48,386 bases of DNA from a virus (taxonomy: Duplodnaviria; Caudoviricetes). The notes beneath the pieces are model-generated. The model ran no database searches. It had not been told where the DNA came from and was given only the letters and a program-made list of their open reading frames with translations. Location: positions 1 to 48,386 of the IMG/VR virus record IMGVR_UViG_3300032305_002231. The stretch is one strand, 5' to 3'. How positions within the stretch are numbered: position 1 is the first letter of the stretch; every line of letters starts with the position of its first letter. Shown here one piece after another: positions 4,385-46,444 of the stretch. The translations under genes were made by a program, and so were the position numbers.

Positions 4385-4424
4385 AATCCATAAATAGTTT
4401 CTAAAAGGAGACTGTTTATGGATT
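4385..4424 (+). promoter_or_regulatory. late-promoter-containing hairpin occluding the RBS and start codon of the HNH gene
   Basis: 18-bp stem AATCCATAAATAGTTTCT / GGAGACTGTTTATGGATT (3 G-U pairs), 4-nt loop; CATAAATA in the 5' arm. Confidence 0.75.
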
Positions 4425-5068
4425 GTCAATATGGTTGCAATAATAAATCAAATTTCATTTTAAAAAATGGAAAAAACTGTTGTTCTGATACTTATAATAA
4501 GTGTCCAAATTTAAGAAGAAAAAATTCTGAAAAACTTAAACTTGCTTATAAAGAGGGAAGAAAAAACAATAATCATTGGAATAAAGAAACCAGAGGATGG
4601 AGAAAAGGTAAAAATTCTTTTTCAGATAAAAGAATATGTGGAAACAAAAACCTATTTACAGAAAACTCCAATTCAACAACAGGAACAATAAAAAAAATAT
4701 TAATTAAAGAAAAGTTAAAAAAATATGAATGTATTATTTGTAAGAATAATGGTAGTTGGAATGAAAAAGAATTGATGTTAGAATTGGATCATATTAATGG
4801 AAAAAGAAAAGATAATAGATTAGAAAATTTAAGGTTTTTGTGTCCTAACTGCCATAGTCAAACATCAACATTTAAAGGTAGAAACATTAACAAAAATAAA
4901 AAGATTGAAGATTCTGTATTCATAGAAGCATTAAAAAGAGAAAAAAACATTAGACAAGCTTTAATTTCACTTGACTTAGACCCAAAAGGTGGTAATTATA
5001 AGAGAGGAAAAAGACTTTTAGCGTATGTATCCCAACTGGTAGAGGAAATTGGCTCAAACCCAACATAG
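4418..5068 (+). CDS. HNH homing endonuclease
   Basis: ECIIC...LELDHING...DNRLENLRFLCPNCHSQT; its 3' end runs into the tRNA-Leu gene. Confidence 0.9.
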   Translation: MDCQYGCNNKSNFILKNGKNCCSDTYNKCPNLRRKNSEKLKLAYKEGRKNNNHWNKETRGWRKGKNSFSDKRICGNKNLFTENSNSTTGTIKKILIKEKLKKYECIICKNNGSWNEKELMLELDHINGKRKDNRLENLRFLCPNCHSQTSTFKGRNINKNKKIEDSVFIEALKREKNIRQALISLDLDPKGGNYKRGKRLLAYVSQLVEEIGSNPT

Positions 5069-5097
5069 TGAAGGTTCAAATCCTTTCATACGCACCA
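5021..5097 (+). tRNA. tRNA-Leu(CAA) with short variable loop
   Basis: Acceptor GCGTATG/CATACGC, anticodon arm (A)TTGG-CTCAAAC-CCAA(C), T arm GAAGG-TTCAAAT-CCTTT, encoded ACCA. Confidence 0.85.
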
Positions 5098-9786: not shown

Positions 9787-11832
9787 TTAATCACCTTGAT
9801 AGTTCCAATTTGAAGGTGTTCTTCTTGAAGGTGAAGAATGATGTAAATCATAAAGTTTTCTTCCTTCTTCTTGATGATGACCAGATTTATGATAAAAATA
9901 ATTTAACACTTCAAGTTGTCTTTTAGTATATTTAAAATGTCTATCACCTGTTGGATTATATTTCTTTTCTGCTTCTGTCCATTTTCTGTAGTAATCAGTT
10001 GCTAAATCTGCATGTTTTTGAATTTGATCCCTTGCAGTCATTCTTGAACGTGCAATATCACGTCTATTTTCTACATCGTCTGGATGACCATCATCATAAT
10101 CATAACTTTCTTCTAATTTTCTTCTGTTACGATTTCTTACTTTTTCTCTGCGTTTTTCAATAGCACCTGAAATTGCCATAGAACCTAAAGTTAAACCAGC
10201 AGCACCTAAACCACCAATAGCACCAATTGTCAATGGAGTAAAAACAGGATCAAATTCATTTAAAATTTCTTCTTCCATAGTCTGTCTAAAACGCATAGCA
10301 TGTCTTGGTTTAAGACCATCACTTCCACCAACAAGTTTATCAATATCGCTTGTTTGACCTGTATAACCTGCTACTCTTTCAAGACCACCTTTACCTTCAC
10401 CACCAGTAATTCTTACAGGCCATGCAGAATACATAATACCTTTACCTTCACCGGGAAGATTTTTAAGAACATCACCATGTCTTACTTTACTTCTTTTTCC
10501 ATCTGGTAGTGTTGCAGTCTGTGTGTAATCATAAACTGATCTATCATCATTGCTGATAACATCACCAGCAGAAGTATAACCATATGTTGGAATTTTTCCA
10601 AAGTTATGTGATGTAATTCTGCCTCTACCAGAATCTCTTCTGGTTCCAGAAGTTCTTGATTCTTCCAAATCTAAACCTAAAGTATCCTGTGCATAAACTT
10701 TTGCATAGGATTCATAAAGATTTGACACCTTTGGAATTTTGGTGTAGGATTCATCAAATTGAATAGTTTTACCTGTTCTTCTTTTATATTCATCATGAAA
10801 ACCGTCTCTCATAACACGATTTTTACCAGCATCACTATGTGCTCTACCACCATAAGTAAGATGTGCAGGTGTTATTTTTGGGTTTTTTGTTTTTTCGTGA
10901 TATTCTCTTGCTTTTCCTTCAAGTTCATCTGTTTTATGATTTAAAATATATGATCGTGCTGACATTCCAACAGATTCATTCATTGGCAAATTGAGTTCTC
11001 TTGCACGGGCTTCTGCACCAGCATTCATGTGGTGTCTTTGTTTTTCTTTATCATTTGCATTAACAGCCTTTATCCATTCTTTATGATGCCATCCTGAAGA
11101 ATATGGTTCTGGTTTTGGATTTGGATTGTAATATTCTTCTAATTTTTTACCTTCCATTAAAGATTCTTTTATATAAGTTGTAACAGGAACAGTTTGAACA
11201 ATATTTCCGTGTGGATCATTTTTCAATGCAAGTTTAATCACTGTTCTAAAAGATTTTTTGCCTTTATTGGTGTCTCTAACATTGTGCATTGCAAACATAT
11301 CAATAATTTTATGTGTATTTTTATATGGTTCTAATTGTCTTTGAATGTTTGCTTCATGTGCAGGAAAGTCTGGATGTTCAGGATAATATTCATTTAATCT
11401 TCCCACTCCACGTCTGTCTGCAACATTAACACGTTCACCTGATCTATGCATATCATTAACCATATCTTGTCTTGATTTATGTCCGGGTTGTCTTCTGTTT
11501 CTTGCTTGACCAGCATCATAAGCAGCAGTTTCTGCATCATAACGATCTTGTATTTCTTTTAAAGATTCTTCCATAATACCATATCTTCTACCATTTTCAA
11601 TATTTCTTTTGCCTGTTTCAATTGCATCATCAATATTATTTGTTTCATATTCACCAACTGGTCTACCATTATGCCATGAATGTACAATATATTCTGGTCT
11701 AATTCTTTCTGCACGATCTATTTTTCTAACAGTGAATTTATGTCCACCATCATAATGTGTTTTTAAGATTGGACCCATATTTTCATATCTGGTGTGCTGG
11801 ATAGTAGGCCAAGATTTTGTCATTTCATTCAA
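9787..11832 (-). CDS. putative capsid-internal polyprotein (681 aa)
   Basis: His/Lys/Arg-rich; about 13 [LIMF]-x-E motifs separating 40-130 aa segments; AATAAATA late-promoter-like site at 11854-11861. Confidence 0.6.
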   Translation of the reverse strand: MNEMTKSWPTIQHTRYENMGPILKTHYDGGHKFTVRKIDRAERIRPEYIVHSWHNGRPVGEYETNNIDDAIETGKRNIENGRRYGIMEESLKEIQDRYDAETAAYDAGQARNRRQPGHKSRQDMVNDMHRSGERVNVADRRGVGRLNEYYPEHPDFPAHEANIQRQLEPYKNTHKIIDMFAMHNVRDTNKGKKSFRTVIKLALKNDPHGNIVQTVPVTTYIKESLMEGKKLEEYYNPNPKPEPYSSGWHHKEWIKAVNANDKEKQRHHMNAGAEARARELNLPMNESVGMSARSYILNHKTDELEGKAREYHEKTKNPKITPAHLTYGGRAHSDAGKNRVMRDGFHDEYKRRTGKTIQFDESYTKIPKVSNLYESYAKVYAQDTLGLDLEESRTSGTRRDSGRGRITSHNFGKIPTYGYTSAGDVISNDDRSVYDYTQTATLPDGKRSKVRHGDVLKNLPGEGKGIMYSAWPVRITGGEGKGGLERVAGYTGQTSDIDKLVGGSDGLKPRHAMRFRQTMEEEILNEFDPVFTPLTIGAIGGLGAAGLTLGSMAISGAIEKRREKVRNRNRRKLEESYDYDDGHPDDVENRRDIARSRMTARDQIQKHADLATDYYRKWTEAEKKYNPTGDRHFKYTKRQLEVLNYFYHKSGHHQEEGRKLYDLHHSSPSRRTPSNWNYQGD

Positions 11833-11859
11833 TCCTTTTTTATGTTATTGTTGTATTTA

Positions 11860-14184
11860 TTATTTCTTGAAAGGTATTTTGTTATCTGGTACATCTAACC
11901 TGATATCATCATCTGATGCTGGAGGAAGTGCCCAATCTGCTTTATCTCTACCATAACCTTTTTTTCTTAACAACATTCTTAAGATTTTTCCTCTATTTTC
12001 ATCTTCCTCTTCATGAATAGTGCTCCACTTATGATCGTAAATAGGATCACCAAAATGATTATCTTTAAAATTATTACCTTTCCACCTTAAATTTTGTGGA
12101 GATACTTGACTTCCTCTAGGAGCAACTGGTGCGGGTGCAATTTTAGTTACATATGTTGTGGTTGGTGAGTTTGCTCTTGTTGCAGCAATGGAAGCATAGT
12201 TTTTAGCATCTTCTGCGTCTTTTCTCAAGGCTTCAATTTCTTTATGTGTTCTTGCTCTTTCTTGTGAAGCTTTTTTTTCTGCATCACCAAAAACTGCATC
12301 TTTTGTAAGTTTACTTACAACAGCATTTCCTATCCAACCAGCAGCAGTTGCTAAACCAGCAGCACCTAAAGTCATTAAATCAATTTCTTGCAATTCTTCT
12401 GGAGGTGGATTAGAATTTCTACCACCAATATATGCTCTCCAGTATTGAATTGCATTCATTTTGTGTTGTGCTGCAGAAAAGAAATCTCTTGAATTCACTG
12501 CTCTTTTATAACGCAAAACATGTTCTCTGAAAACCCCTAAATGATAATCTTTTGAGGATTCCGTTACATTTTGTTTTGTGTTGATGTTTCTCATTGCCAT
12601 AGTCATAGCATTTTTGGCATCATGAATATTATTATAAACTCTTACCATAGGTTCCTTGACACCATTACGTTTTAATGTAAAGGTAAATTGTTTATGTCCT
12701 GTTTTTTGAATATGGTAAACATCACCATTTTCTGCATGAACATAATTTTCATTCAAATCAACACCCAAAACATCTTTTGCATAGATATCTGCATAGGCTT
12801 CATAAAGACTTTTTACACCATACTCTGTGTTTTCTGCAATATAACGTTCTCCATGATGCTTTCCAAGAAGTGGCATAGATAAAGTTCTGTGCATTTTGCC
12901 TTGACCTGTAACTTTACCGTTGACTTTTACAACTGTTGCAACAGGCTGACCTGCAAAATAAGAATGTATTGAAACTTTTCCTTTTCCATGATCATGTTTT
13001 ACATGAATGGTTCTGCCACCTGTTGCATGTTTACCAAAGGTTTTGCTTGATGCATCAATAGCATGTCTTTCTGCTTCTGGAAAACTATTATAATTACCAA
13101 TTTTCATTCCGTTATCCAAAACTTCTACGTTTTCATTTAGTTCTTTTTCTTTAGAGTATAGATGTTTTGTATCTTCTAAATATTTTTCATAATGTTTAAT
13201 TGTATCTTCTCTCTTTTTTGGTGATAAAACTTTATATTTTTTAATTTTGTATGTAAGATTCATACCTGATGCTTTTGAATGCACAGTAAATTGTGATTTA
13301 TCTTTATTGTCCATAAATTCTTTTCCAAGAGGACTATCAAAAGATACTCTTCCTCTTGAAAAATCTGCATGTGTAGGAATGGTCAAAGTAAATTTACGAT
13401 GTTCACCTTGATCATCTATTAAATGAATTTGATGATCATGTGGATATGCCATATGTTCATATTTCATCTGTTCAACAGTTTTTTGAAGATTGTCAAGATA
13501 TTTTTGTTGTTCTTTTTCATATTCTTCATTTAAACCAATAGCTGCACCTAAATGTCCAAGCAATGTGGTTTTTCTATGTGCTTCATTTCTATGAAACTTG
13601 GCCCAAAGAAGTTGTTTATGTGCAGCTACAGAATCTACACCATTTTTAAACCAATGTTTAGCACCACCATCATGTTCTTTTGCTTGAGCGAGATGTTGTT
13701 TTCTTGTCCAAGAAGCATGTTCTGTTCTTGCTTTTTTAATGGTAGCATCAGATAATTCTGCAGGACCACTTTTGTATTCTGACATTTTATTTTTCTTTCC
13801 TTCTGAATCGTATAGTGTGTATATTGGATCATTTACTGAAATTGGAAATGGGTTTAAAGGACCACTAGGTGTAAAAGGTTGAAATTGAACTTTCCACTCT
13901 TCCAATTTTTTATTTCTTGCTCTTTCACCTCTTACATCATATACTACACCTCTTTTTTTTCCTTCAATCATTTCCTGATGCCATCCAATCAATTTTCCAT
14001 ATCTTCCTAGCAATGAGGCTCTTGCTTTTTCATTTTCACCAGAATTAATAGTATTTTTTAAATTAGTGATAATTCTTTCGTGATCTGATATTTTAGCATT
14101 GGCATATGAGGACTGCATAATAGCCTTCATATGTTCCCAATTTTCACCACGTTTCATAAAGATTTTTCTTTTATTATCATCCAT
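11860..14184 (-). CDS. putative capsid-internal polyprotein (774 aa) with a GreA/Rnk C-terminal-like module
   Basis: Repeated LNE/LEE/IAE/LQE motifs; ADFSRGRVSFDSPLGK; shares linker and hydrophobic modules with 9787..11832. Confidence 0.6.
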   Translation of the reverse strand: MDDNKRKIFMKRGENWEHMKAIMQSSYANAKISDHERIITNLKNTINSGENEKARASLLGRYGKLIGWHQEMIEGKKRGVVYDVRGERARNKKLEEWKVQFQPFTPSGPLNPFPISVNDPIYTLYDSEGKKNKMSEYKSGPAELSDATIKKARTEHASWTRKQHLAQAKEHDGGAKHWFKNGVDSVAAHKQLLWAKFHRNEAHRKTTLLGHLGAAIGLNEEYEKEQQKYLDNLQKTVEQMKYEHMAYPHDHQIHLIDDQGEHRKFTLTIPTHADFSRGRVSFDSPLGKEFMDNKDKSQFTVHSKASGMNLTYKIKKYKVLSPKKREDTIKHYEKYLEDTKHLYSKEKELNENVEVLDNGMKIGNYNSFPEAERHAIDASSKTFGKHATGGRTIHVKHDHGKGKVSIHSYFAGQPVATVVKVNGKVTGQGKMHRTLSMPLLGKHHGERYIAENTEYGVKSLYEAYADIYAKDVLGVDLNENYVHAENGDVYHIQKTGHKQFTFTLKRNGVKEPMVRVYNNIHDAKNAMTMAMRNINTKQNVTESSKDYHLGVFREHVLRYKRAVNSRDFFSAAQHKMNAIQYWRAYIGGRNSNPPPEELQEIDLMTLGAAGLATAAGWIGNAVVSKLTKDAVFGDAEKKASQERARTHKEIEALRKDAEDAKNYASIAATRANSPTTTYVTKIAPAPVAPRGSQVSPQNLRWKGNNFKDNHFGDPIYDHKWSTIHEEEDENRGKILRMLLRKKGYGRDKADWALPPASDDDIRLDVPDNKIPFKK

Positions 14185-16035: not shown

Positions 16036-16794
16036 ATGAATATTTATACGATATATAAAGCCACAAATACCATTAATGGTAAAGTCTATGTTGGTTTTGA
16101 TTCCAAATGGCCCAAAAGACAAAAAGAACACACAACTCTGTTCATGCACTATAATACTGTTTTTTCAAAAGCAATAGAAAAATATGGTGCAGAAGCGTTT
16201 TCTTGGGAAATAATTTATCAATCTAAAGAAAAAGAACACACTTTGAGTGAAATGGAAACTTTTTTCATTAAAAAATTTAACAGTCATATAGACAATAAAA
16301 TGGGGTATAATATGACTTATGGAGGAGAAGGCTCATTAGGTTGTAAACGTTCAGAAGATCAAAAAAAGAAAATGTCTGAAAAACATAAAAATAGAGTATT
16401 TTCTGAGGAGTGGAAAAGAAAAATTTCTGAATCAAAAAAAGGCCAAAAATCTTGGAATAAAGACAAAAAAATTGGTCCTATGTCAGAAGATCAAAAACAT
16501 AAAATATCTAAAGCATTGGTTGGAAATCAATATGCTAAAGGGATGACCCATTCTGAAGAAACTAAACTGAAAATGTCGCAATCAAATAAAGGCAAAAACA
16601 AAGGCAAGAAAAGAACAGCAGAACAACGCAAAATTATTAGTGAATCTAAAAAAGGAAATATTCCTTGGAATAAAGGTGTCACACATTCCAAGGAAACCAG
16701 TAAAAAAATATCAGAAGCAAACAAATCATATAATATCAACAAATTACAAAACAAAACAATAGATTGTGTCTACCTACCTATTATCTTCCTTTAA
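16036..16794 (+). CDS. free-standing GIY-YIG homing endonuclease with NUMOD3 repeats
   Basis: TIYKATNTINGKVYVG, GYNMTYGGEG, repeated HSEETK.KMS / PWNKG; antisense to flanking baseplate genes. Confidence 0.9.
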   Translation: MNIYTIYKATNTINGKVYVGFDSKWPKRQKEHTTLFMHYNTVFSKAIEKYGAEAFSWEIIYQSKEKEHTLSEMETFFIKKFNSHIDNKMGYNMTYGGEGSLGCKRSEDQKKKMSEKHKNRVFSEEWKRKISESKKGQKSWNKDKKIGPMSEDQKHKISKALVGNQYAKGMTHSEETKLKMSQSNKGKNKGKKRTAEQRKIISESKKGNIPWNKGVTHSKETSKKISEANKSYNINKLQNKTIDCVYLPIIFL

Positions 16795-18203
16795 TATTTT
16801 TTTGGTCTTGGAACATAAGGTGCCAATTCAGGACCATACATTTTTAAAATAGTTTCTTCATATCTTTTTTCTTTATCACTCTGTAAATCTTTTTTGATTT
16901 GTGATCCTGTTCTTCTTTTTCTGTTAGGATCACGACCATATGGTGTTGTTCTGACAACATAAGCACCAGATGCAGGATTATCAGAATCGTTATCAGGATA
17001 TTTTGTAAAGGTATAATAACCTTTATTTGTTCTTGATTCTTTCAATTTTTTTGGTACTCTTATCATTGCAACTTTTGATGGTCTTGCATCATAGTCCAAA
17101 ATATCTGGATCATAATCTTCTGGATCATCTGTTCTCATTGGTGGATATTTTTTTGCAACAACTATATCATGTGGACCAACCACTCTTCTTTTATATTGAG
17201 GCCATTTTGATCCATATAACTTATGAACTGCTGTTTTTGAATATGGTTTATCGTAATCATCAAAACCTTCTGCATCTTTTGGATGATGCCCCTGAACTCT
17301 TAATCCTTTTTTAGTATCCATAGGAGAACTGTTTCTATATTCTCTATTATACCACAAATCCTTTTTGTTTTCATTCAAATTATGTCTGAGATATTCAATA
17401 GGTTTGAATCTATTATAAGGACTATTTGTTGAACTTTCACCACTGTCTCTTTTAACTATTATTCTGTGTTCATCTGGATTATATTCTGTTTCAAATGCTA
17501 CACGATTATTTGTTTGTAAATGTTTCCATTCTGATACATATCTTTCGCCATGATATTCATGTTGACTAAACAAATGCACATAACCTTTTCTTTTTAAAAA
17601 TTTATGAACTTTATCAAAATGTTGCATATGTCTTTCTTTTACACGATAATCATCTTCTTCATTTTCAACTTCTTCACTCAAATATTCATTAACATCTTCA
17701 CGTATTGTTTCGTTTTGATGATGTGCTTTATGCCATCTTTCCAACACTTTATTCATATCTTCTGCAGAATTGACCATTTCATGTGTTTCGCCCATATCAC
17801 CCTTATAATGAATATGAATTCTGTGTCCTTTATAACCGCTAGACCTATTACCACCATACATTAAAGAAGAGGCATCTTTACGTGTTTTTGATGAATATTC
17901 TATTTCACGACCAGATGCTGGATAAACATTAACGTAACCAGTTACTGGTCTTGCTTGTTTATCAACATAATGCTTACCGTTTAACATGGTATGGGATTTT
18001 TCTTTTGGTGAATGACCAATGTAAGAAAGTTTTCCTTGATCACCATTATCTTCTGATTTACTATATCCATGTTTTTTCAAAAAATGTTCAAAAGTGTTGT
18101 AAATATGTGCTTCTTCACTTTTACTAACAGGATCATATTTACCTTCACTCAGTTCCAGAACATTCCAAAATCTTTTCTTAATGTTTGATTTAAATCTATA
18201 CAT
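16791..18203 (-). CDS. putative capsid-internal polyprotein (470 aa)
   Basis: His/Lys-rich; LSE, IRE, VNE, LSE, LNE, LKE motifs; two similar (H)xFLKxxGY segments; directly follows gp25. Confidence 0.55.
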   Translation of the reverse strand: MYRFKSNIKKRFWNVLELSEGKYDPVSKSEEAHIYNTFEHFLKKHGYSKSEDNGDQGKLSYIGHSPKEKSHTMLNGKHYVDKQARPVTGYVNVYPASGREIEYSSKTRKDASSLMYGGNRSSGYKGHRIHIHYKGDMGETHEMVNSAEDMNKVLERWHKAHHQNETIREDVNEYLSEEVENEEDDYRVKERHMQHFDKVHKFLKRKGYVHLFSQHEYHGERYVSEWKHLQTNNRVAFETEYNPDEHRIIVKRDSGESSTNSPYNRFKPIEYLRHNLNENKKDLWYNREYRNSSPMDTKKGLRVQGHHPKDAEGFDDYDKPYSKTAVHKLYGSKWPQYKRRVVGPHDIVVAKKYPPMRTDDPEDYDPDILDYDARPSKVAMIRVPKKLKESRTNKGYYTFTKYPDNDSDNPASGAYVVRTTPYGRDPNRKRRTGSQIKKDLQSDKEKRYEETILKMYGPELAPYVPRPKKY

Positions 18204-22695: not shown

Positions 22696-24648
22696 TTATA
22701 ATGATGAAAATCTTCTTCTTTGGCGGTTAATTCTATCTAAATTATGAGATGCCTGATTGGCCTTTGTATTATGAACTATTTCATTATATTTAGAACTTTC
22801 ATAATTTTCATTATGTTTATTCCAATCTTCTCTATTAGTAGCTTTATCTCTTTGAGATTTATGGAATTTGGCATCAGTATTATGTTTAGTGGCTAATGCT
22901 CTATTTGTTTGGTAATTGTTTGATTGAACTTCATAATTGTCACTATCTTCATCATATCCTTCAGTCAACCAATGATCATCAATCATTAAATCTTTACCAG
23001 TTTTGTTTTTATAAGCTTTAATATGATGATCCCTCAATTCAAAATCACCCTCTTCATCAGCCATTTTTGCAATACGGACATGATCATCAAGAGATACTTC
23101 TGACCTTCTTTCAGTCAATCCCTGATAACCTTTAGCTGTTCTAGTCAACTTACCCATAAACTGTTCCATATCTGCAGGAGAAGCATTAGAAATTGATGAA
23201 CCTGACATGTTGTGGGTAGCACTAATAATCTTGGTTCCACCTGTACCAGTTCTTCCTAGAGCAAAGTCAATCTTATGATCTGGATTTTCTTTGTGTTGAA
23301 ATGTACCTATAAGTGTTCCTGTTGATTTAAAAGGAACTGCTTTTGCACCAGTTAACCATTGTGTTTTTTGTCCAAGTCTTGTTAGATTTTGACCACCAAT
23401 TCTTCTACCATGTGAGCCTTTAATATGCAAATCCCATTTGTTTGAACCTGCTTCTCTAAACCTGTTTAAAGTGTGTGCAAAGGCTGCTTCAGTCTCATGT
23501 GAATCAGTGTCATATGTACCAAAAGAATCTGGTTCATGAGTCTTTAAAGCATCTTTAATTCTGTCTGTGAAACCTTCTTCAATACCAAGATTGTTGTAAG
23601 AATTCTGTTTTGAAATGAACTTAGAATAACCTGACATTAGATTGTCTGGAAAAACTCTTTTAGTGTTTTCAACAAGATTGTAGGATTCTTTAATATTTTT
23701 TCTAGAAAAATCTAAAGTTTCACCAGTAACTTGTTTATATTTTTCATGATTTCTATTTCTTAATATTTTTCGTTTTTCTGCTTCATATGTGTTGCCTGAA
23801 GACTGTGCTTTTAACATTTTACTATGATTATCTTGTGCTGAAGTTGCATATAAATGTGCAGCAGAATCCATAATTCCAAATCTTCCTTCATTCAAGGATT
23901 CAGCTAATCCTCTGTAATGTAGAATTGTTGATGCATCATTTATTTGGTCAAGATATTTGGCTTCTTTTTCTGTATTACCCATGCCTCTCATATTTTTTGC
24001 TGCTTCTCCTGCATCTTTAATAATATAACGCAGTTCTGCATCTGATTTTTGATGGTATGGATGACCTTCAAGTGGCATTCTGGCCTCACCAAGCCAACTT
24101 CTTTTCTTTGGCATAATTATATTTTTTTTGCCATTATGATGAACTTCTACAGAATGATTAGGATTATCATCAGCTATTTTCTGAAGTCTTGAATGCATAT
24201 CCATCCAAGAAGAATAATTCTCGTTTCCATGTTTGTCAATAACATCTCCTACATGAGAATCTGCAACAACAACTCCTGTTTTTTTATCTCTAAGAGTTAC
24301 TCTAAAAGCTTCTGTGATGTTTGTCATGTTTGTCTCTCTAAGCCATCTGTTTTTGGGTGTATTGAATTTGGGAAAATCTGAAGGAAGTTCATCTTTAATA
24401 TAATCTGAATAAAACCAATGGATATGTTTAGCTAATGATTTTGGGGTTTCTCCAAGACCAATACCACCACCATGATAATTGTCCATATGTTTAAAAGGAA
24501 CAAAATGTCTTCTAGAAGCTTGAGTCAAAACATGATTAAAATGTTCATCTGTCCAACCATATTTTGTTCTTAGAACATCATCAACCTGATGTTGTGGATG
24601 TATATATTTTTTTGATTTACCACCAAAAATTTCGTTTATGTTTGCCAT
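22696..24648 (-). CDS. putative capsid-internal polyprotein (650 aa) between gp5 and gp5.4
   Basis: INE, LRE, ITE, LGE, LAE, LNE, IKE, LVE, IEE, LTE, LTE motifs delimiting His-rich modules. Confidence 0.6.
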   Translation of the reverse strand: MANINEIFGGKSKKYIHPQHQVDDVLRTKYGWTDEHFNHVLTQASRRHFVPFKHMDNYHGGGIGLGETPKSLAKHIHWFYSDYIKDELPSDFPKFNTPKNRWLRETNMTNITEAFRVTLRDKKTGVVVADSHVGDVIDKHGNENYSSWMDMHSRLQKIADDNPNHSVEVHHNGKKNIIMPKKRSWLGEARMPLEGHPYHQKSDAELRYIIKDAGEAAKNMRGMGNTEKEAKYLDQINDASTILHYRGLAESLNEGRFGIMDSAAHLYATSAQDNHSKMLKAQSSGNTYEAEKRKILRNRNHEKYKQVTGETLDFSRKNIKESYNLVENTKRVFPDNLMSGYSKFISKQNSYNNLGIEEGFTDRIKDALKTHEPDSFGTYDTDSHETEAAFAHTLNRFREAGSNKWDLHIKGSHGRRIGGQNLTRLGQKTQWLTGAKAVPFKSTGTLIGTFQHKENPDHKIDFALGRTGTGGTKIISATHNMSGSSISNASPADMEQFMGKLTRTAKGYQGLTERRSEVSLDDHVRIAKMADEEGDFELRDHHIKAYKNKTGKDLMIDDHWLTEGYDEDSDNYEVQSNNYQTNRALATKHNTDAKFHKSQRDKATNREDWNKHNENYESSKYNEIVHNTKANQASHNLDRINRQRRRFSSL

Positions 24649-38527: not shown

Positions 38528-39289
38528 TTAATCCCTCAATAGTGGTATATTATTCTGGTTTTCTACTTTATTTCTTGCTATTATATATTCTTTCACTAGA
38601 CCAGACCTTACGATATCTTCAATTCCAAACTCTACCATAGAGAAAGAATTCATTTTCTTGAAGATTTTGACAAAAAGTCCAAATCCTGTTTTTTCTTTCT
38701 TCAAATCATTCTGTGACAAATCACCACACAGAACAATCTTTGATCCTTTACCAACTCTAGTCATTACAGAATGTAATTCTTCTTCTGTAAAGTTCTGTAT
38801 TTCATCCACAATAATGATTGTATTATCAAGAGTGATACCTCTTACATATGAGGTAGTCATGAATTCCACTATATGCTTATTTTTCAGGATTGTATAGGCA
38901 TCATCTCTATTATAAAGATTGCCCATGATTTGATGGTAAGGCTGTTCAAAGTATGATGATTTTTCTTTCATATTACCCGGCATAAATCCAAGATCACGGG
39001 ACGGAACTGCTGATCTAATAATCACTATTTTATTATGTTTTTGATTTTCGTAGATATCTTTTAGTGCCAAATATATTGACAGAAAGGTTTTACCTGTTCC
39101 TGCTGTTCCATAGAGAATTAGATTTTTTCCTTTATAATATTCTTCAAAGGCTTCACATTGTTTGTCTGTTAATGGTTGAATTTCTTTCAGAGAAAAATGA
39201 TCTTTCAAAGGTATGACATTATCTTTCCATGCAGTCTGGTGTCTTGCTTTTTTTGATGCTTTTCTTTCTTCTCTAGATTTTTTACTCAA
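38528..39289 (-). CDS. phoH: PhoH-like ATPase
   Basis: G.AGTGKTFL, IIRS.VP.RD.GF.PG, TS..RG.T, VDE.QN, TRVG, GD..Q.DL, DIVRSGLVK; TTG start after AAGGAG. Confidence 0.95.
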   Translation of the reverse strand: MSKKSREERKASKKARHQTAWKDNVIPLKDHFSLKEIQPLTDKQCEAFEEYYKGKNLILYGTAGTGKTFLSIYLALKDIYENQKHNKIVIIRSAVPSRDLGFMPGNMKEKSSYFEQPYHQIMGNLYNRDDAYTILKNKHIVEFMTTSYVRGITLDNTIIIVDEIQNFTEEELHSVMTRVGKGSKIVLCGDLSQNDLKKEKTGFGLFVKIFKKMNSFSMVEFGIEDIVRSGLVKEYIIARNKVENQNNIPLLRD

Positions 39290-39325
39290 AGAAATCTCCT
39301 TTGTATTAAATTGAAAAAACATAAT

Positions 39326-41044
39326 CTATTTCTTTTTTTTGTTCTCCTTATGGTTGTGGTACATGGTGTCTAATCCTGCTATACGATAATCTTTATTTCT
39401 ACCTTTGTTTTCCACAAAGCCATGACTTTTATAAAAGTCAACAAGTTGTTCGCTTTTTGTGGAGTTGTCCAAAGGTACAGCATTCAAAATAATTTTGACT
39501 TTATTTTTGTTGGAATATTTTTTGATATCTGATACCACGTTAGAAGCTATTCCTTGGTTTCTAAGTTCTTTTGGAACTATAAGTGTCTGAAGGTTTACAT
39601 GCCCTTCTGGTGTCCAATACATTTCCACATGAGCACCATGTTTGTCAATAAGATGTTGAGAAAATTCTTCTAAATCTTTTGTATGGTAAATTTCATCATT
39701 ATCGTCTTTGACACGTTCTTTAATAGTTACTTTTTGTAATCTACCAGAACCAGCACCACTACATCTATGACCACTACATTGTGTTATTTTCATGTCATCT
39801 GCAATATAACGAGCAACATGTCTAACAACTGCAGGACCAAGTTTCCCCATATCATTACCACCAACATTCATACGTGCTAATTCTGGATTTTTAAAATATT
39901 TTGTAGCATGAACATGAACAGGATGTTCCAAATTTGGATGAAAAATTTTATAAGAATGTTGTACCATATCATCATCAAAATGTACGTGTATTTTTTTTAT
40001 TTGAAGTCCTTCAACAGATTCTCTAATTTTAATTTTTACTGATGCTGGACTGTTTTTTCTTGATCCGCCCATTCTATTACCCATGAACGTTTCTACACCC
40101 AAATCTTTTTTCATAAATCTTGCAATTTTCCTTGCTTCCACCGTTCCAATTTTATTATAATCTTCATCATGATTACCAGCAATATTGATTAATGCTGAGT
40201 TGGGCCACTTTGCCATTTTGGTTGCAGTAATTCCTACAGGACGTTTTATATTTGGATGTCTCAATTCATAATCATGATCTTCCCACTCAGCACTTTTATC
40301 AGCACCAATTTTTATAAGAGTAGTTTTTCCAAACTTGTGTTCTTCAGCTTCTCTTAACATATCTATTGATTGCATTCTTCCCGGACCTGCGCCAGTTTCT
40401 CTTTTACCAACAAATTTAGTGATGCCAGTGACTTGTCTGATATGGTTCATTACGTGTCTAACAGCAGCAGGACCAAGTTTACCGGGATCATTGCCACCAA
40501 CTTCTATTTCACCTTCCCATTTTTTGTTTCTGTGTTGAATAGTATTCACATATATTCTTTTATGTCCAAGTTTTGGATGTTCCACAAAAAAGGTATGGAA
40601 AATTTGTTTACCAACATCAGTTTTTCCTTCATGATAAATTTCCAAACCTTCAACATTTGATTCTTTGATTGGTATAGATACTCTGGATGGTCCCTTTCCA
40701 GATTTAACTCTTGCACCAGTTGTTCTAAGACCAGAATAAACTTTTACACCAAGATCATTAGAAATTTGTCTTGCAATATGTCTAATATTTACAGTGCCAA
40801 CTTTATTGGCATCTTCTTTATTTCCAGATATGGTAATAGAGGCAGTACCGGGATATCTAGTATCTTTAGTTGCAATTATACCAACATTTCTTGGTAATGC
40901 AGGATGATATAATCTATAATGGTGGTCTTCCCATTCACTTGCTGGCATATTAGGACTTTTTTCAAATCGTCCTCTATCAACTTTCCCTTTAGTTAATTCT
41001 GCTTTTTGATTAGATTCTTCTAAACTAGAAGGTGTTGATGCCAT
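39326..41044 (-). CDS. polyprotein: four related ~100 aa repeats (ABAB) plus a C-terminal GNAT acetyltransferase domain
   Basis: Repeats share H.(Y/F)...HP, G...R..A, G.R..G; each ends in [IL]-x-E; GNAT motifs VPKELRNQGIAS and LVDFYKSHGF. Confidence 0.75.
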   Translation of the reverse strand: MASTPSSLEESNQKAELTKGKVDRGRFEKSPNMPASEWEDHHYRLYHPALPRNVGIIATKDTRYPGTASITISGNKEDANKVGTVNIRHIARQISNDLGVKVYSGLRTTGARVKSGKGPSRVSIPIKESNVEGLEIYHEGKTDVGKQIFHTFFVEHPKLGHKRIYVNTIQHRNKKWEGEIEVGGNDPGKLGPAAVRHVMNHIRQVTGITKFVGKRETGAGPGRMQSIDMLREAEEHKFGKTTLIKIGADKSAEWEDHDYELRHPNIKRPVGITATKMAKWPNSALINIAGNHDEDYNKIGTVEARKIARFMKKDLGVETFMGNRMGGSRKNSPASVKIKIRESVEGLQIKKIHVHFDDDMVQHSYKIFHPNLEHPVHVHATKYFKNPELARMNVGGNDMGKLGPAVVRHVARYIADDMKITQCSGHRCSGAGSGRLQKVTIKERVKDDNDEIYHTKDLEEFSQHLIDKHGAHVEMYWTPEGHVNLQTLIVPKELRNQGIASNVVSDIKKYSNKNKVKIILNAVPLDNSTKSEQLVDFYKSHGFVENKGRNKDYRIAGLDTMYHNHKENKKKK

Positions 41045-45275: not shown

Positions 45276-46001
45276 TCACTCAGCCGCTTGAGTCAAGCCC
45301 TCATATGAAATATTTTTCGTTTTTACTTTAACATGTTCATATGTGTTATTTTGCAACATGTTGGTCTTTTCTGGAAGGTTCATAAGCTTAAAATCGGAAA
45401 ATAACCATTTTGTCTTATAAGAAACAATACCAGTAGTAACACAAGTAATTTCATCATTCATATCAGGTTCACGGAATGACAAATAATCATTGGCAAGACT
45501 ATAAAGGTCTTCTTTGTTAACTGAACATACAACAAAGTTAACACCTGCAACTTCAAGTGTTGTATAAACAGAACCAATTTCAAAAGCCATATGAGCAAGT
45601 TGTACTGCCTGATATGATGGTGTCATATCATCTCTAACAAAGAAATAAACATATTTTGCATGTTCAATTTCTTCACCAAAAAGGGAATCTCTAATCTCTG
45701 TTAAAATACGGAAAAACTGTTCTATTTCCCATTCATTTTCAAGACACTCTTCCATAACAGAAGGTTGAAGAGTGAACTGAGTTGCTTTCTTTAGCCCTGC
45801 ATATGGTGACATACCATTTTCAAGCTTAATTTTATTACTGATCTTGGTAAACATTGTTTCAAGAATGTTCAAAGCAATTTCAGTTTTACTTTCATTGGAT
45901 TTAGCAGTCATGGCTTTCATAATAGCCAGAGAAACGTAATCTTGTGCGGTGTCAAGATTGTTGTGTACTATATTTTTAAATTCTTTACGGAAATCTTTCA
46001 T
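45276..46001 (-). CDS. Pth2-like peptidyl-tRNA hydrolase domain protein with an N-terminal extension
   Basis: YVYFFVRDDM...QAVQLAH, FVVCSV, FREPDMN..ITC; AAGGAG RBS at 46009-46014. Confidence 0.7.
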   Translation of the reverse strand: MKDFRKEFKNIVHNNLDTAQDYVSLAIMKAMTAKSNESKTEIALNILETMFTKISNKIKLENGMSPYAGLKKATQFTLQPSVMEECLENEWEIEQFFRILTEIRDSLFGEEIEHAKYVYFFVRDDMTPSYQAVQLAHMAFEIGSVYTTLEVAGVNFVVCSVNKEDLYSLANDYLSFREPDMNDEITCVTTGIVSYKTKWLFSDFKLMNLPEKTNMLQNNTYEHVKVKTKNISYEGLTQAAE

Positions 46002-46025
46002 TTTATTACTCCTTTAAACAATAAT

Positions 46026-46082
46026 TTAAGTGTATTCTTTATTCAAAAGAATTTCAATAGGAGGACCACGGGCATTCTACAT
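46026..46082 (-). CDS. leader minigene M-amber-NARGPPIEILLNKEYT
   Basis: AAAGGT RBS, 6 nt, then ATG TAG AAT GCC CGT GGT CCT CCT ATT GAA ... ACT TAA. Confidence 0.6.
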
Positions 46083-46100
46083 ATTTTTACCTTTCAAACT

Positions 46101-46174
46101 TGGTGATTCTGGTAAGAATTGCACTTACATAAATGTATTTAGAGTACACCGCATTTCTGTTATGCTACAGAACC
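46101..46174 (-). tRNA. amber suppressor tRNA (anticodon CUA)
   Basis: GGTTCTG-TA-GCAT-AACAGAA-ATGC-G-GTGTA-CTCTAAA-TACAT-TTAT-GTAAG-TGCAATT-CTTAC-CAGAATC-A-CCA; all four stems pair. Confidence 0.85.
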
Positions 46175-46444
46175 AAAATATTCATTAAACAATTTAATAT
46201 CAGTATTTTCATATGTCAAAGCACAAGGCTGAATACAAGCATTACAAATATTTTTATTATTATCAAACCAACGACAATAAACACGTTCAATTTGAGTTGT
46301 TGGAACAGAAGTATTATATAACCATCCGGGAATTTCTTTTGTTCCATATTCAATATCTGAAATAGTCATGGCAGGACCACCACTCTTCAAATAAACAATA
46401 TCTCCTCTTTTAAAAGCATAGTTAATCATTGTGATATCCTGCAT
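46160..46444 (-). CDS. YodC/DUF2158-family protein
   Basis: FK.GD.V.LKSGGP.MT....C.WF; last codons overlap the tRNA 5' end. Confidence 0.8.
   Translation of the reverse strand: MQDITMINYAFKRGDIVYLKSGGPAMTISDIEYGTKEIPGWLYNTSVPTTQIERVYCRWFDNNKNICNACIQPCALTYENTDIKLFNEYFGSVA

Follow-up and report, generated by a model that had tools for sequence, protein, structure and literature searches.

The window analysed here is a 48,386-nt stretch of DNA from a virus of the class Caudoviricetes (IMG/VR record IMGVR_UViG_3300032305_002231), assembled as a single contig. Judged from its neighbour genes and from the tests of the genetic code given below, it belongs to a T4-like phage with a standard code. 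Its genes include an RNase H-type exonuclease, a GIY-YIG protein and a glycosyltransferase, and PhoH-like, baseplate-like and tail-like ORFs were read by eye from the ORF list. On the minus strand, a tRNA with a CUA anticodon, a leader minigene of the form ATG-TAG and a gene for a Pth2-like protein follow one another. This layout had been claimed in a first-pass annotation of the sequence and was confirmed. The locus comprises the following parts, some of them beyond that annotation:

46191..46219, minus strand: promoter-like TTGACA-17-TAAATT directly ahead of the tRNA, the best match in the region (10/12)
46101..46174, minus strand: amber suppressor-type tRNA, anticodon CUA (ARAGORN; Rfam RF00005)
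46090..46094, minus strand: Shine-Dalgarno-like AAGGT of the leader (sequence)
46026..46082, minus strand: leader minigene M-amber-NARGPPIEILLNKEYT-stop (translation), with equivalents in 35 of 98 clusters of related loci
46077..46079, minus strand: gate codon TAG, codon 2 of the leader, next base A (sequence; contigs from other runs keep the TAG)
46059..46070, minus strand: Arg-Gly-Pro-Pro codons, predicted pause or arrest site and hairpin foot (leader motif counts)
46008..46052, minus strand: predicted hairpin, 46052-46039 pairing with 46021-46008 (centroid structure)
46014-46009, minus strand: downstream ribosome-binding site AAGGAG, inside the 3' arm of the hairpin (centroid structure)
45666..46001, minus strand: N-terminal helical domain of the gated gene, about residues 1-112 (AlphaFold2 model)
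45276..45665, minus strand: Pth2-fold domain (residues 113-207) with a low-confidence tail (VIA-align to 1wn2)

The leader ATG at 46082, with AAGGT ahead of it, lies 18 nt behind the tRNA, and 24 nt separate the leader from a 241-aa ORF (46001-45276). The leader itself (46082-46026) translates as M, stop, NARGPPIEILLNKEYT, stop. A single transcript carrying the tRNA, the leader and the gene would start at the promoter-like site; the number of such sites is at chance level, despite the 10/12 match. Contigs from the sequencing runs of other studies cover the leader, and among the matches listed the ATG, TAG and RGPP codons are unchanged, so the TAG of the window is not an assembly error. The leader-region differences among these matches are an Ala-to-Val change, one synonymous change and one indel in the spacer. 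The pattern coding for R[GA]PP occurs once in the window against 0.33 expected, a count reached by 29 of 100 shuffles; taken alone it is at chance level, and its significance therefore rests on conservation across relatives.

The tRNA at 46174-46101 forms a full cloverleaf (Rfam RF00005, 57.3 bits, E = 6.9e-11) with a CU-CUA-AA anticodon loop, a short variable loop and an encoded CCA. The label "Pyl" given to it by ARAGORN reflects the anticodon only. The hallmarks of tRNA-Pyl are a short D-loop, a 6-bp anticodon stem and a 3-nt variable loop; the window tRNA is an ordinary cloverleaf with a 5-bp anticodon stem and a 4-nt variable loop, and this anatomy rules out a pyrrolysine system. No pyl genes were found among the neighbours scanned. 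The CU-CUA-AA loop is common to 85 of the 117 CUA tRNAs of related loci, about ten of which are ARAGORN "cta" calls with loops that are possibly Arg-UCU. The discriminator base varies among the 117 (A in 70, G in 21, U in 19 and C in 7), and it changes from A73 to G between close relatives among the matches listed on contigs of other studies. Comparison of the tRNA bodies gave no shared acceptor-stem or discriminator identity among the 117, and no common amino-acid identity was found. Since the loop is shared and the acceptor stem and discriminator are not, it is decoding that is kept and not the inserted residue.

Outside the gate, TAG is an ordinary stop in the window: the long genes have no internal TAG, and long-ORF coverage is identical under both codes, which rules out genome-wide TAG recoding (code 15). 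In a codon-usage test, 84 of 86 stretches (85 loci and the whole window) were free of any other internal gate codon; the same test gave 20, 8 and 3 on segments of the recoded phage Lak-B4, used as a positive control.

An AlphaFold2 model of the gated protein, built from 146 sequences, reached a pLDDT of 90.3. Residues 113-207 align with the Pth2 structure 1wn2 (VIA-align Z 11.3, rmsd 2.3 Å over 95 residues), followed by 2gax (Z 10.2), and the eight best rows of a Foldseek search are Pth2-family structures, none of them at E below 0.001. A profile of seven homologous domains matches Pth2 of M. jannaschii (E = 3e-9). The window protein itself did not match PF01981 in a Pfam search, and single-sequence searches with it gave no match in viral contigs or PDB sequences; three homologous domains pass PF01981 with 24.9-27.1 bits against the curated cut-off of 23. 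At E up to 0.001, the family comprises 1719 representatives.

The domain carries the motifs VR-D...QAVQ-AH and FREPD...T. All 99 cluster representatives have Q134 and H137; E178 is kept in 97, T186 in 95 and D180 in 94, and R123 and D125 are also kept in 94-97. Papers on Pth2 and PTRHD1 that were consulted for catalytic data supplied none. The catalytic triad of Pth2 consists of Lys, Asp and Thr. Relative to the M. jannaschii enzyme, the Lys of GKGK is replaced by Gln or Tyr (Y130 in the window), the Asp of DAG by Glu, and the Thr following that Asp is not kept in the family. With the canonical Lys and Asp replaced, hydrolase activity is not assured, and we describe the protein as Pth2 by fold, with a putative hydrolase function. 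It has in common with the Pth2 family (PF01981; 1wn2, 2zv3) the fold and the VR-D...Q..H motif, and differs from it, apart from the two substitutions, by the extra helical N-terminal domain. This domain (residues 1-112), searched within the full-length model, gave no structural match above Z 6; it is a separate upstream gene in some relatives. Partner genes vary and include the N-terminal domain, a YRHHHIAY family and HD domains, and near gated loci we observed tRNA clusters, permuted tmRNA, and HD-domain and TROVE proteins. These partners and neighbours point, by association only, to tRNA or ribosome rescue. A ribosome-rescue role for phage PTH2 genes has been proposed in a review of jumbo phages, which in the sections available to us makes no mention of a stop-codon gate on them (PMC7824862).

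To collect homologous loci, narrower alignments were used than that of the 146 sequences, which was too diverse for a locus search. A total of 195 loci (some contigs appear twice, and one collection is the best 80 of 329) were classified together with the window: 121 have a stop inside the Pth2-like gene (direct form), 59 have one in a leader and 16 have none; L175 and L187 were reassigned by eye from the class without a gate to the leader class. L033 and L100 were set aside for too little upstream DNA, and L167 for the lack of a recognisable start. Clustering at 70% identity of the Pth2-like domain gave 99 clusters, one of them uninformative. An early in-frame stop gates 91 of the 98 informative clusters. 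The direct gate accounts for 56 of them (TAG 52, TGA 3, TAA 1) and the leader gate for 35, namely 33 pure ones (TAG 31, TGA 2) and two mixed leader/none; the other seven are ungated.

In the direct form, an ATG is followed by one to nine codons, the stop and the Pth2-like domain (e.g., MT-stop, MK-stop, MKDT-stop or MKPFM-stop); the gate is codon 3 in 24 of the 56 clusters, and most members have no in-frame ATG between stop and domain. In the leader form, ATG...stop...xPP lies 47-110 nt ahead of the point where the fused gene or a partner gene begins. As a control, other ORFs from these loci were scored; the direct TAG pattern was present in 85 of 3330 (2.6%), that of the leader TAG in 16 of 1999 (0.8%). 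A hold-out set of 22 metagenome loci was fetched after the rules had been fixed, 16 of them less than 70% identical to any earlier locus; 20 were gated, one was borderline and one ungated. At L056/L141 a CUA tRNA is present, but the ATG...TAG is out of frame with the domain.

The residue before the gate is Thr in 24 of 84 clusters against 6 of 214 natural TAG stops, and the base after it is a purine in 74 of 84 against 113 of 214. Thr before a stop and a purine after it both favour read-through, and these comparisons indicate that the codon context of the gate is selected. A literature search on the Asp-Thr-stop context returned nothing useful.

The codon of the gate and the anticodon of the suppressor change together. 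A matching suppressor lies within the fetched locus in 69 of the 91 gated clusters, and no cluster has a mismatched suppressor only; in the remaining 22 it is missing from the fetched locus, and some of these were resolved by a genome-wide follow-up. Six of the seven ungated clusters are without any suppressor. The follow-up confirmed a CUA tRNA in XacN1, Xoo-sp13, RsoM2USA, RAS14, BF, GAP32, G004, G014, G018 and Kaldavass. ARAGORN did not confirm the CUA tRNA pattern matches in LR756511, G008, G009 and G015, and those in G002, G006, G031 and G035 are Arg tRNAs. The complete genome G003 has an MKDT-amber gate, but the tRNA clusters scanned there yielded no CUA tRNA. Gate and CUA tRNA are both absent from RaK2 and Hallingskeid, and Aeh1 and phiWae14 are ungated with no confirmed suppressor.

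TGA gates are accompanied by UCA tRNAs in five cases (L071, L093, L144, L176/177 and L046, the last from the genome-wide follow-up) and TAA gates by UUA tRNAs in three (L126, Lak-B4 and LR745208); three further TGA or TAA gates, from the hold-out set, lie on short contigs without tRNAs. These UCA and UUA suppressors aim at the commonest stops, UGA in GC-rich and UAA in AT-rich genomes. The starred branches of a 106-row tree, which has few columns and rough support, is midpoint-rooted for drawing and leaves out Aeh1, force at least five changes for TGA and at least four for TAA. Lak-B4 is TAG-recoded (coverage increases from 0.27 to 0.87 with TAG as sense) and also has a CUA tRNA; its leader, MKLQHW-TAA-VTCDRGP-TAA, stands directly behind a UUA tRNA. 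That a TAG-recoded phage gates with TAA and a separate UUA tRNA implies that the gate must stay a real stop. Conservation of the gate and of its matching suppressor, by which the first-pass annotation had proposed to check its reading, thus holds across very divergent phages.

Gated genes are also found in cultured phages: XacN1, RsoM2USA, BF, GAP32, ME3, Arash, Xoo-sp13, RAS14, Kaldavass and the cluster C mycobacteriophages. BF and RsoM2USA have no annotation for the gene, and in GAP32 and Arash its annotated start lies downstream. In XacN1, AGAGGA precedes ATG AAG TAG (M-K-amber), in frame with ORF364 and 7 codons ahead of its annotated start, and the CUA tRNAs lie ~200 kb from the gated gene; the RsoM2USA gate is ML-stop. 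In the parts of the respective papers available to us, the target genes of the two CUA tRNAs of XacN1 were not identifiable by its authors (PMC5852040), the CUA tRNA of RsoM2USA is noted with no specific target (PMC8504454), and the suppressor tRNA of a Klebsiella phage is left unexplained. Mycobacteriophage Cali has TTGACA...TACCGT followed by ATG TAG GTG, and Myrna has GTG TAG GTG; in both, a CUA tRNA lies just downstream, and in cluster C the GTG directly after the TAG is the annotated start. This arrangement suggests that the transcripts are leaderless and begin with the start codon that precedes the amber. The Cali stretch is common to 202 records at 95% or more, the TAG itself having been read in Cali.

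The leader search, which required an in-frame PP, yielded 47 distinct leaders. RGPP, which the first-pass annotation had placed at the core of the arrangement, did not keep that position: it is present in 19 of the 47 leaders, and 56 of the 91 gated clusters are direct forms with no leader at all. As most members are without RGPP, it was dropped as a defining element. Pro-Pro occurs in 43 leaders, one of RGPP, RAPP or RSPP in 24, Ser-Pro-stop in four and a Pro-stop end in 23 (one leader, L132, entered these motif counts, and the hairpin z-scores and accessibilities given next, with a wrong PP). In about a third of the leaders, a second amber follows the first.

In these leaders, folding predicts a long hairpin between the Pro codons and the next start, with its foot paired to the ribosome-binding site (RBS). 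A hairpin z-score below -2 was obtained for 40 of the 47 leaders (median -3.4) and for 8 of the 55 stretches that precede direct-form genes; the leader stems are of unrelated sequence. At least four base pairs join the Pro-codon region to the RBS window in 38 of 47 leaders. When a modelled ribosome was moved from the gate to the Pro codons, mean RBS accessibility rose from 0.45 to 0.59 (in the window from 0.42 to 0.67), with a gain above 0.1 in 28 of the 47 leaders and of 0.1 or less in 19. The window hairpin is among the weaker ones (z -1.4, and 0.22 for a longer stretch). According to these models, the leader is likely coupled to the downstream gene by an RBS-sequestering hairpin. Since the modelled ribosome at the Pro codons raises RBS accessibility, read-through is likely the on signal in both forms; the direct form would give this same signal because read-through is its only route to the protein. 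Conservation of Pro-Pro solely as an anti-SD sequence is unlikely as the only cause, since the third positions of the Pro codons vary (CCT, CCA, CCG, CCC).

Translational attenuation by leader peptides is known from ermC, cat, secM-secA and mifM-yidC2. Like these attenuators and the RAPP/RGPP arrest peptides, the gated loci have a short leader and a motif of R-x-P-P type, and their predicted RBS hairpin would likewise be opened by the ribosome; here, one or two stops bar the way to the motif. In further contrast to both, the gated leaders are often shorter than 10 residues and have no targeting domain, and half of them end in Pro-stop. In the available part of one study, RGPP is the strongest RAPP-type arrest core and EF-P-resistant in the peptides tested, and a RAPP-type motif is insufficient alone and needs an upstream segment (PMC12992588). 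In the window, only four residues precede RGPP, in a peptide of eight residues, which speaks against arrest; given the reported strength of the core, a ribosome pause there is plausible.

At the level of sequence and comparison, four things can be considered established: the gate, the tRNA anticodon that matches it, the use of the standard code outside it, and the conservation, between the Pro codons and the downstream RBS, of a stretch able to form a hairpin. The gate is strongly supported by comparison, and the on sign and the hairpin coupling are well-supported predictions of the models. The tRNA, amber, leader and hairpin probably constitute a switch, in which the Pth2-fold gene is likely on only when the suppressor beats the release factor. 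Termination at the amber would leave the hairpin closed and the gene off; after read-through, the ribosome would reach RGPP and, pausing there or running over the 5' arm, free the AAGGAG and turn the gene on. We regard this gate-and-hairpin mechanism as highly probable. A switch gated by read-through had been the central proposal of the first-pass annotation, and the conserved gate with its matching tRNA and the joint change of codon and anticodon support it.

What the switch senses is a more tentative matter. In prfB, the gene of RF2, an early in-frame UGA bypassed by a +1 frameshift provides autoregulation. The phage switch may likewise report failing termination or peptidyl-tRNA release, as the prfB in-frame stop reports a shortage of RF2, and its product could be a reserve enzyme for clearing tRNAs whose 3' ends are blocked. 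An output that is normally low and goes up once the suppressor outpaces the release factors fits the double ambers, the Pro-stop ends, the suppressors aimed at the commonest stops and the codon switch in Lak-B4. We regard release-factor sensing as a serious candidate for the purpose, at slightly short of an even chance.

The same parts could instead serve a weakly charged suppressor that is loaded only if normal tRNAs have been cut, blocked or stuck, and that reports damage to the tRNA pool. The suppressor bodies are heterogeneous and differ between close relatives too (A73 to G), as for non-cognate substrates, and the neighbouring tRNA clusters, permuted tmRNA, HD-domain and TROVE proteins would suit this role. 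The pre-gate peptides are very short, with codon 3 as the gate in so many direct forms, so that a ribosome can get to the gate with few other tRNAs. However, the anticodon loops look decoding-optimised, with CU-CUA-AA prevailing, and the selected codon context and the Pro-stop ends point to the termination step itself, which makes such a damage sensor unlikely, if still worth attention. A somewhat less likely purpose is to dampen leaks or to act as a timer: with tRNA and gene co-transcribed and both needed, there would be no leaky early expression of a harmful enzyme. Archaeal Pth2 is able to attack formyl-Met-tRNA. The suppressor tRNA lies in the fetched locus of most gated clusters (69 of 91), that of the window stands directly behind the promoter-like site, and the principle works in E. 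coli in a synthetic loop, as far as the available part of that report goes (PMC7969014). The XacN1 tRNAs ~200 kb from their gene speak against it, as does Lak-B4, where the TAG code switch could be the timer, yet a separate TAA/UUA pair is used; moreover, UCA and UUA suppressors hit the commonest stops and would need to stay weak.

Autoregulation, in which the Pth2-like protein deacylates the charged suppressor (or aminoacyl-tRNA generally), closes its own gate and holds its level constant, would explain why the active-site residues are non-canonical yet near-invariant, as fits a changed substrate, and why gate and tRNA were lost together in RaK2 and Hallingskeid. It leaves the partner genes unexplained, and RaK2, Hallingskeid, Aeh1 and phiWae14 retain the gene ungated, so that the enzyme is tolerated without feedback; we consider it improbable. 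The absence of any regulation, with the stops as pseudogene scars, assembly errors or traces of recoding and the genes dead or starting downstream, is very improbable. An alternative start after the stop exists at a few loci (XacN1, cluster C), and one complete genome (G003) has no detectable suppressor. Against this stand the position, context and codon-anticodon covariation of the gate across domains at 35-55% identity, the intact conserved domains and standard code elsewhere, and the lack of an in-frame ATG between stop and domain in most direct forms.

Close to the gate among known systems is prfB, with which it has in common an early in-frame stop that ties expression to competition with release factors; the prfB product is, and the gated product resembles, a peptidyl-tRNA-hydrolysing protein. 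The phage gate differs in using a dedicated suppressor tRNA and not a +1 frameshift, and in having a Pth2-fold product and not a release factor. A suppressor tRNA that reads a stop codon is likewise found in recoded phages (code 15 or 4; crAss-like, Lak), where, in the part of the report available, it is proposed to time gene expression (Borges et al., bioRxiv 10.1101/2021.08.26.457843). Recoded phages, however, carry the recoded codon in many late genes, whereas gated phages keep the standard code and use one codon in one gene or small operon; the residue inserted at the gate is not conserved, and the recoded Lak-B4 shifts its gate to a surviving stop. The synthetic suppressor-tRNA feed-forward loop also combines a suppressor with nonsense codons as an AND gate, but, as described in the same partly available report (PMC7969014), it is engineered, whereas the phage gate is natural and evolutionarily conserved.

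No description of the stop gate and suppressor pair was found by a search of open-licence papers and bioRxiv full text. This is a widespread, probable translational switch on a private stop-codon/suppressor pair, undescribed as far as the literature search reaches; what is new comprises the direct form, the joint change of codon and anticodon, the move to TAA in Lak-B4 and the examples among cultured phages. As a tentative overall reading, large phages of Proteobacteria, Actinobacteria and Bacteroidota may repeatedly have built a termination sensor from such a pair: when release factors are weakened by host defence or stress, reading through a single tuned stop (or, in some cases, two stops one after the other, with amplification by an arrest leader) would yield a non-canonical Pth2 enzyme and its partner, which would rescue tRNAs or ribosomes.

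The suppressor tRNAs of standard-code phages gain a concrete, testable target, a gap stated in print for XacN1 in the part of that paper available (PMC5852040), and with ~200 records of cluster C mycobacteriophages sharing the stretch, the switch can be tested in M. smegmatis. It would show nonsense suppression put to regulatory use in nature, is a candidate for what preceded the recoding of phage genomes, and would direct attention to a stress or host defence that acts on termination or tRNA recycling. If true, the reading would add a class to the known genetic switches, account for the majority of suppressor tRNAs in phages with a standard code, hint at an undescribed anti-phage attack on termination, and provide an intermediate from which phages could begin to recode whole genomes.

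The same gate, an early in-frame stop codon before or in the Pth2-like gene, was found with three unrelated partner modules, exemplified by the loci L150, L099 and L015.

Partner modules found under the gate
L150:9577-10002 and relatives: YRHHHIAY family, which has no Pfam match (16 clusters)
L099:4702-5103: the N-terminal domain of the window's gated gene, here as a free-standing gene
L015:1994-2830: HD-like domain, either fused to the Pth2-like domain or located 3' of it

The loci L056 and L141 carry an out-of-frame version: at about 9965-10000 of L141, ATG AAG CCC ATC TCC CTA GTC TAG is read in a different frame from that of the Pth2-like domain; the domain frame itself has a TAG 3' of a CCC run, and a CUA tRNA lies 313 nt upstream. 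Either the assembly contains an indel at this point, or the gate exists here in a variant that involves a frameshift.

All six matches in prokaryote genomes (L190-L195) came from metagenome-assembled bins. Two of them are located on 425-kb contigs, and one is as long as a viral contig; these sequences are probably phage DNA binned as cellular.

A permuted tmRNA was located upstream of the Pth2-like gene at the ungated loci L002, L008, L098 and L240, from which a suppressor tRNA is absent; several gated loci are likewise flanked by tmRNA.

Elsewhere in the window, a 572-aa GNAT-ending ORF (39326-41044, minus strand) terminates in TAG, followed in the same frame by the ATT ATG of a PhoH-like gene (38528-39322, minus strand). 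The suppressor tRNA could yield a fusion of the two products, the simpler reading being a plain stop. An ORF at 4418-5097, HNH-like by eye, ends within the tRNA-Leu gene (5021-5097). Several long ORFs among the structural genes carry repeated short motifs.

Long ORFs of the window with repeated LxE or 'EE' type motifs
9787-14184
16791-18203
22696-24648
39326-41044

The complete genome of the gated phage G003 and the 479-kb phage G018 contain tRNA-like elements with apparently swapped arms (loci L221 and L223), in which an anticodon-type hairpin apparently comes first and a D-loop-type hairpin second. These elements had low Rfam scores, and ARAGORN gave no call for them.

tRNA-like elements with apparently swapped arms
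G003:C1:164972-165051 and 165405-165493
G018:C1:207661-207739

Two CUA-called tRNAs each were present in L110, L114, L158, L160, L183 and the cultured gated phage XacN1. G018 possesses both a CUA and a UCA tRNA (G018:C1:157728 and 233369), and may harbor a second gated gene.
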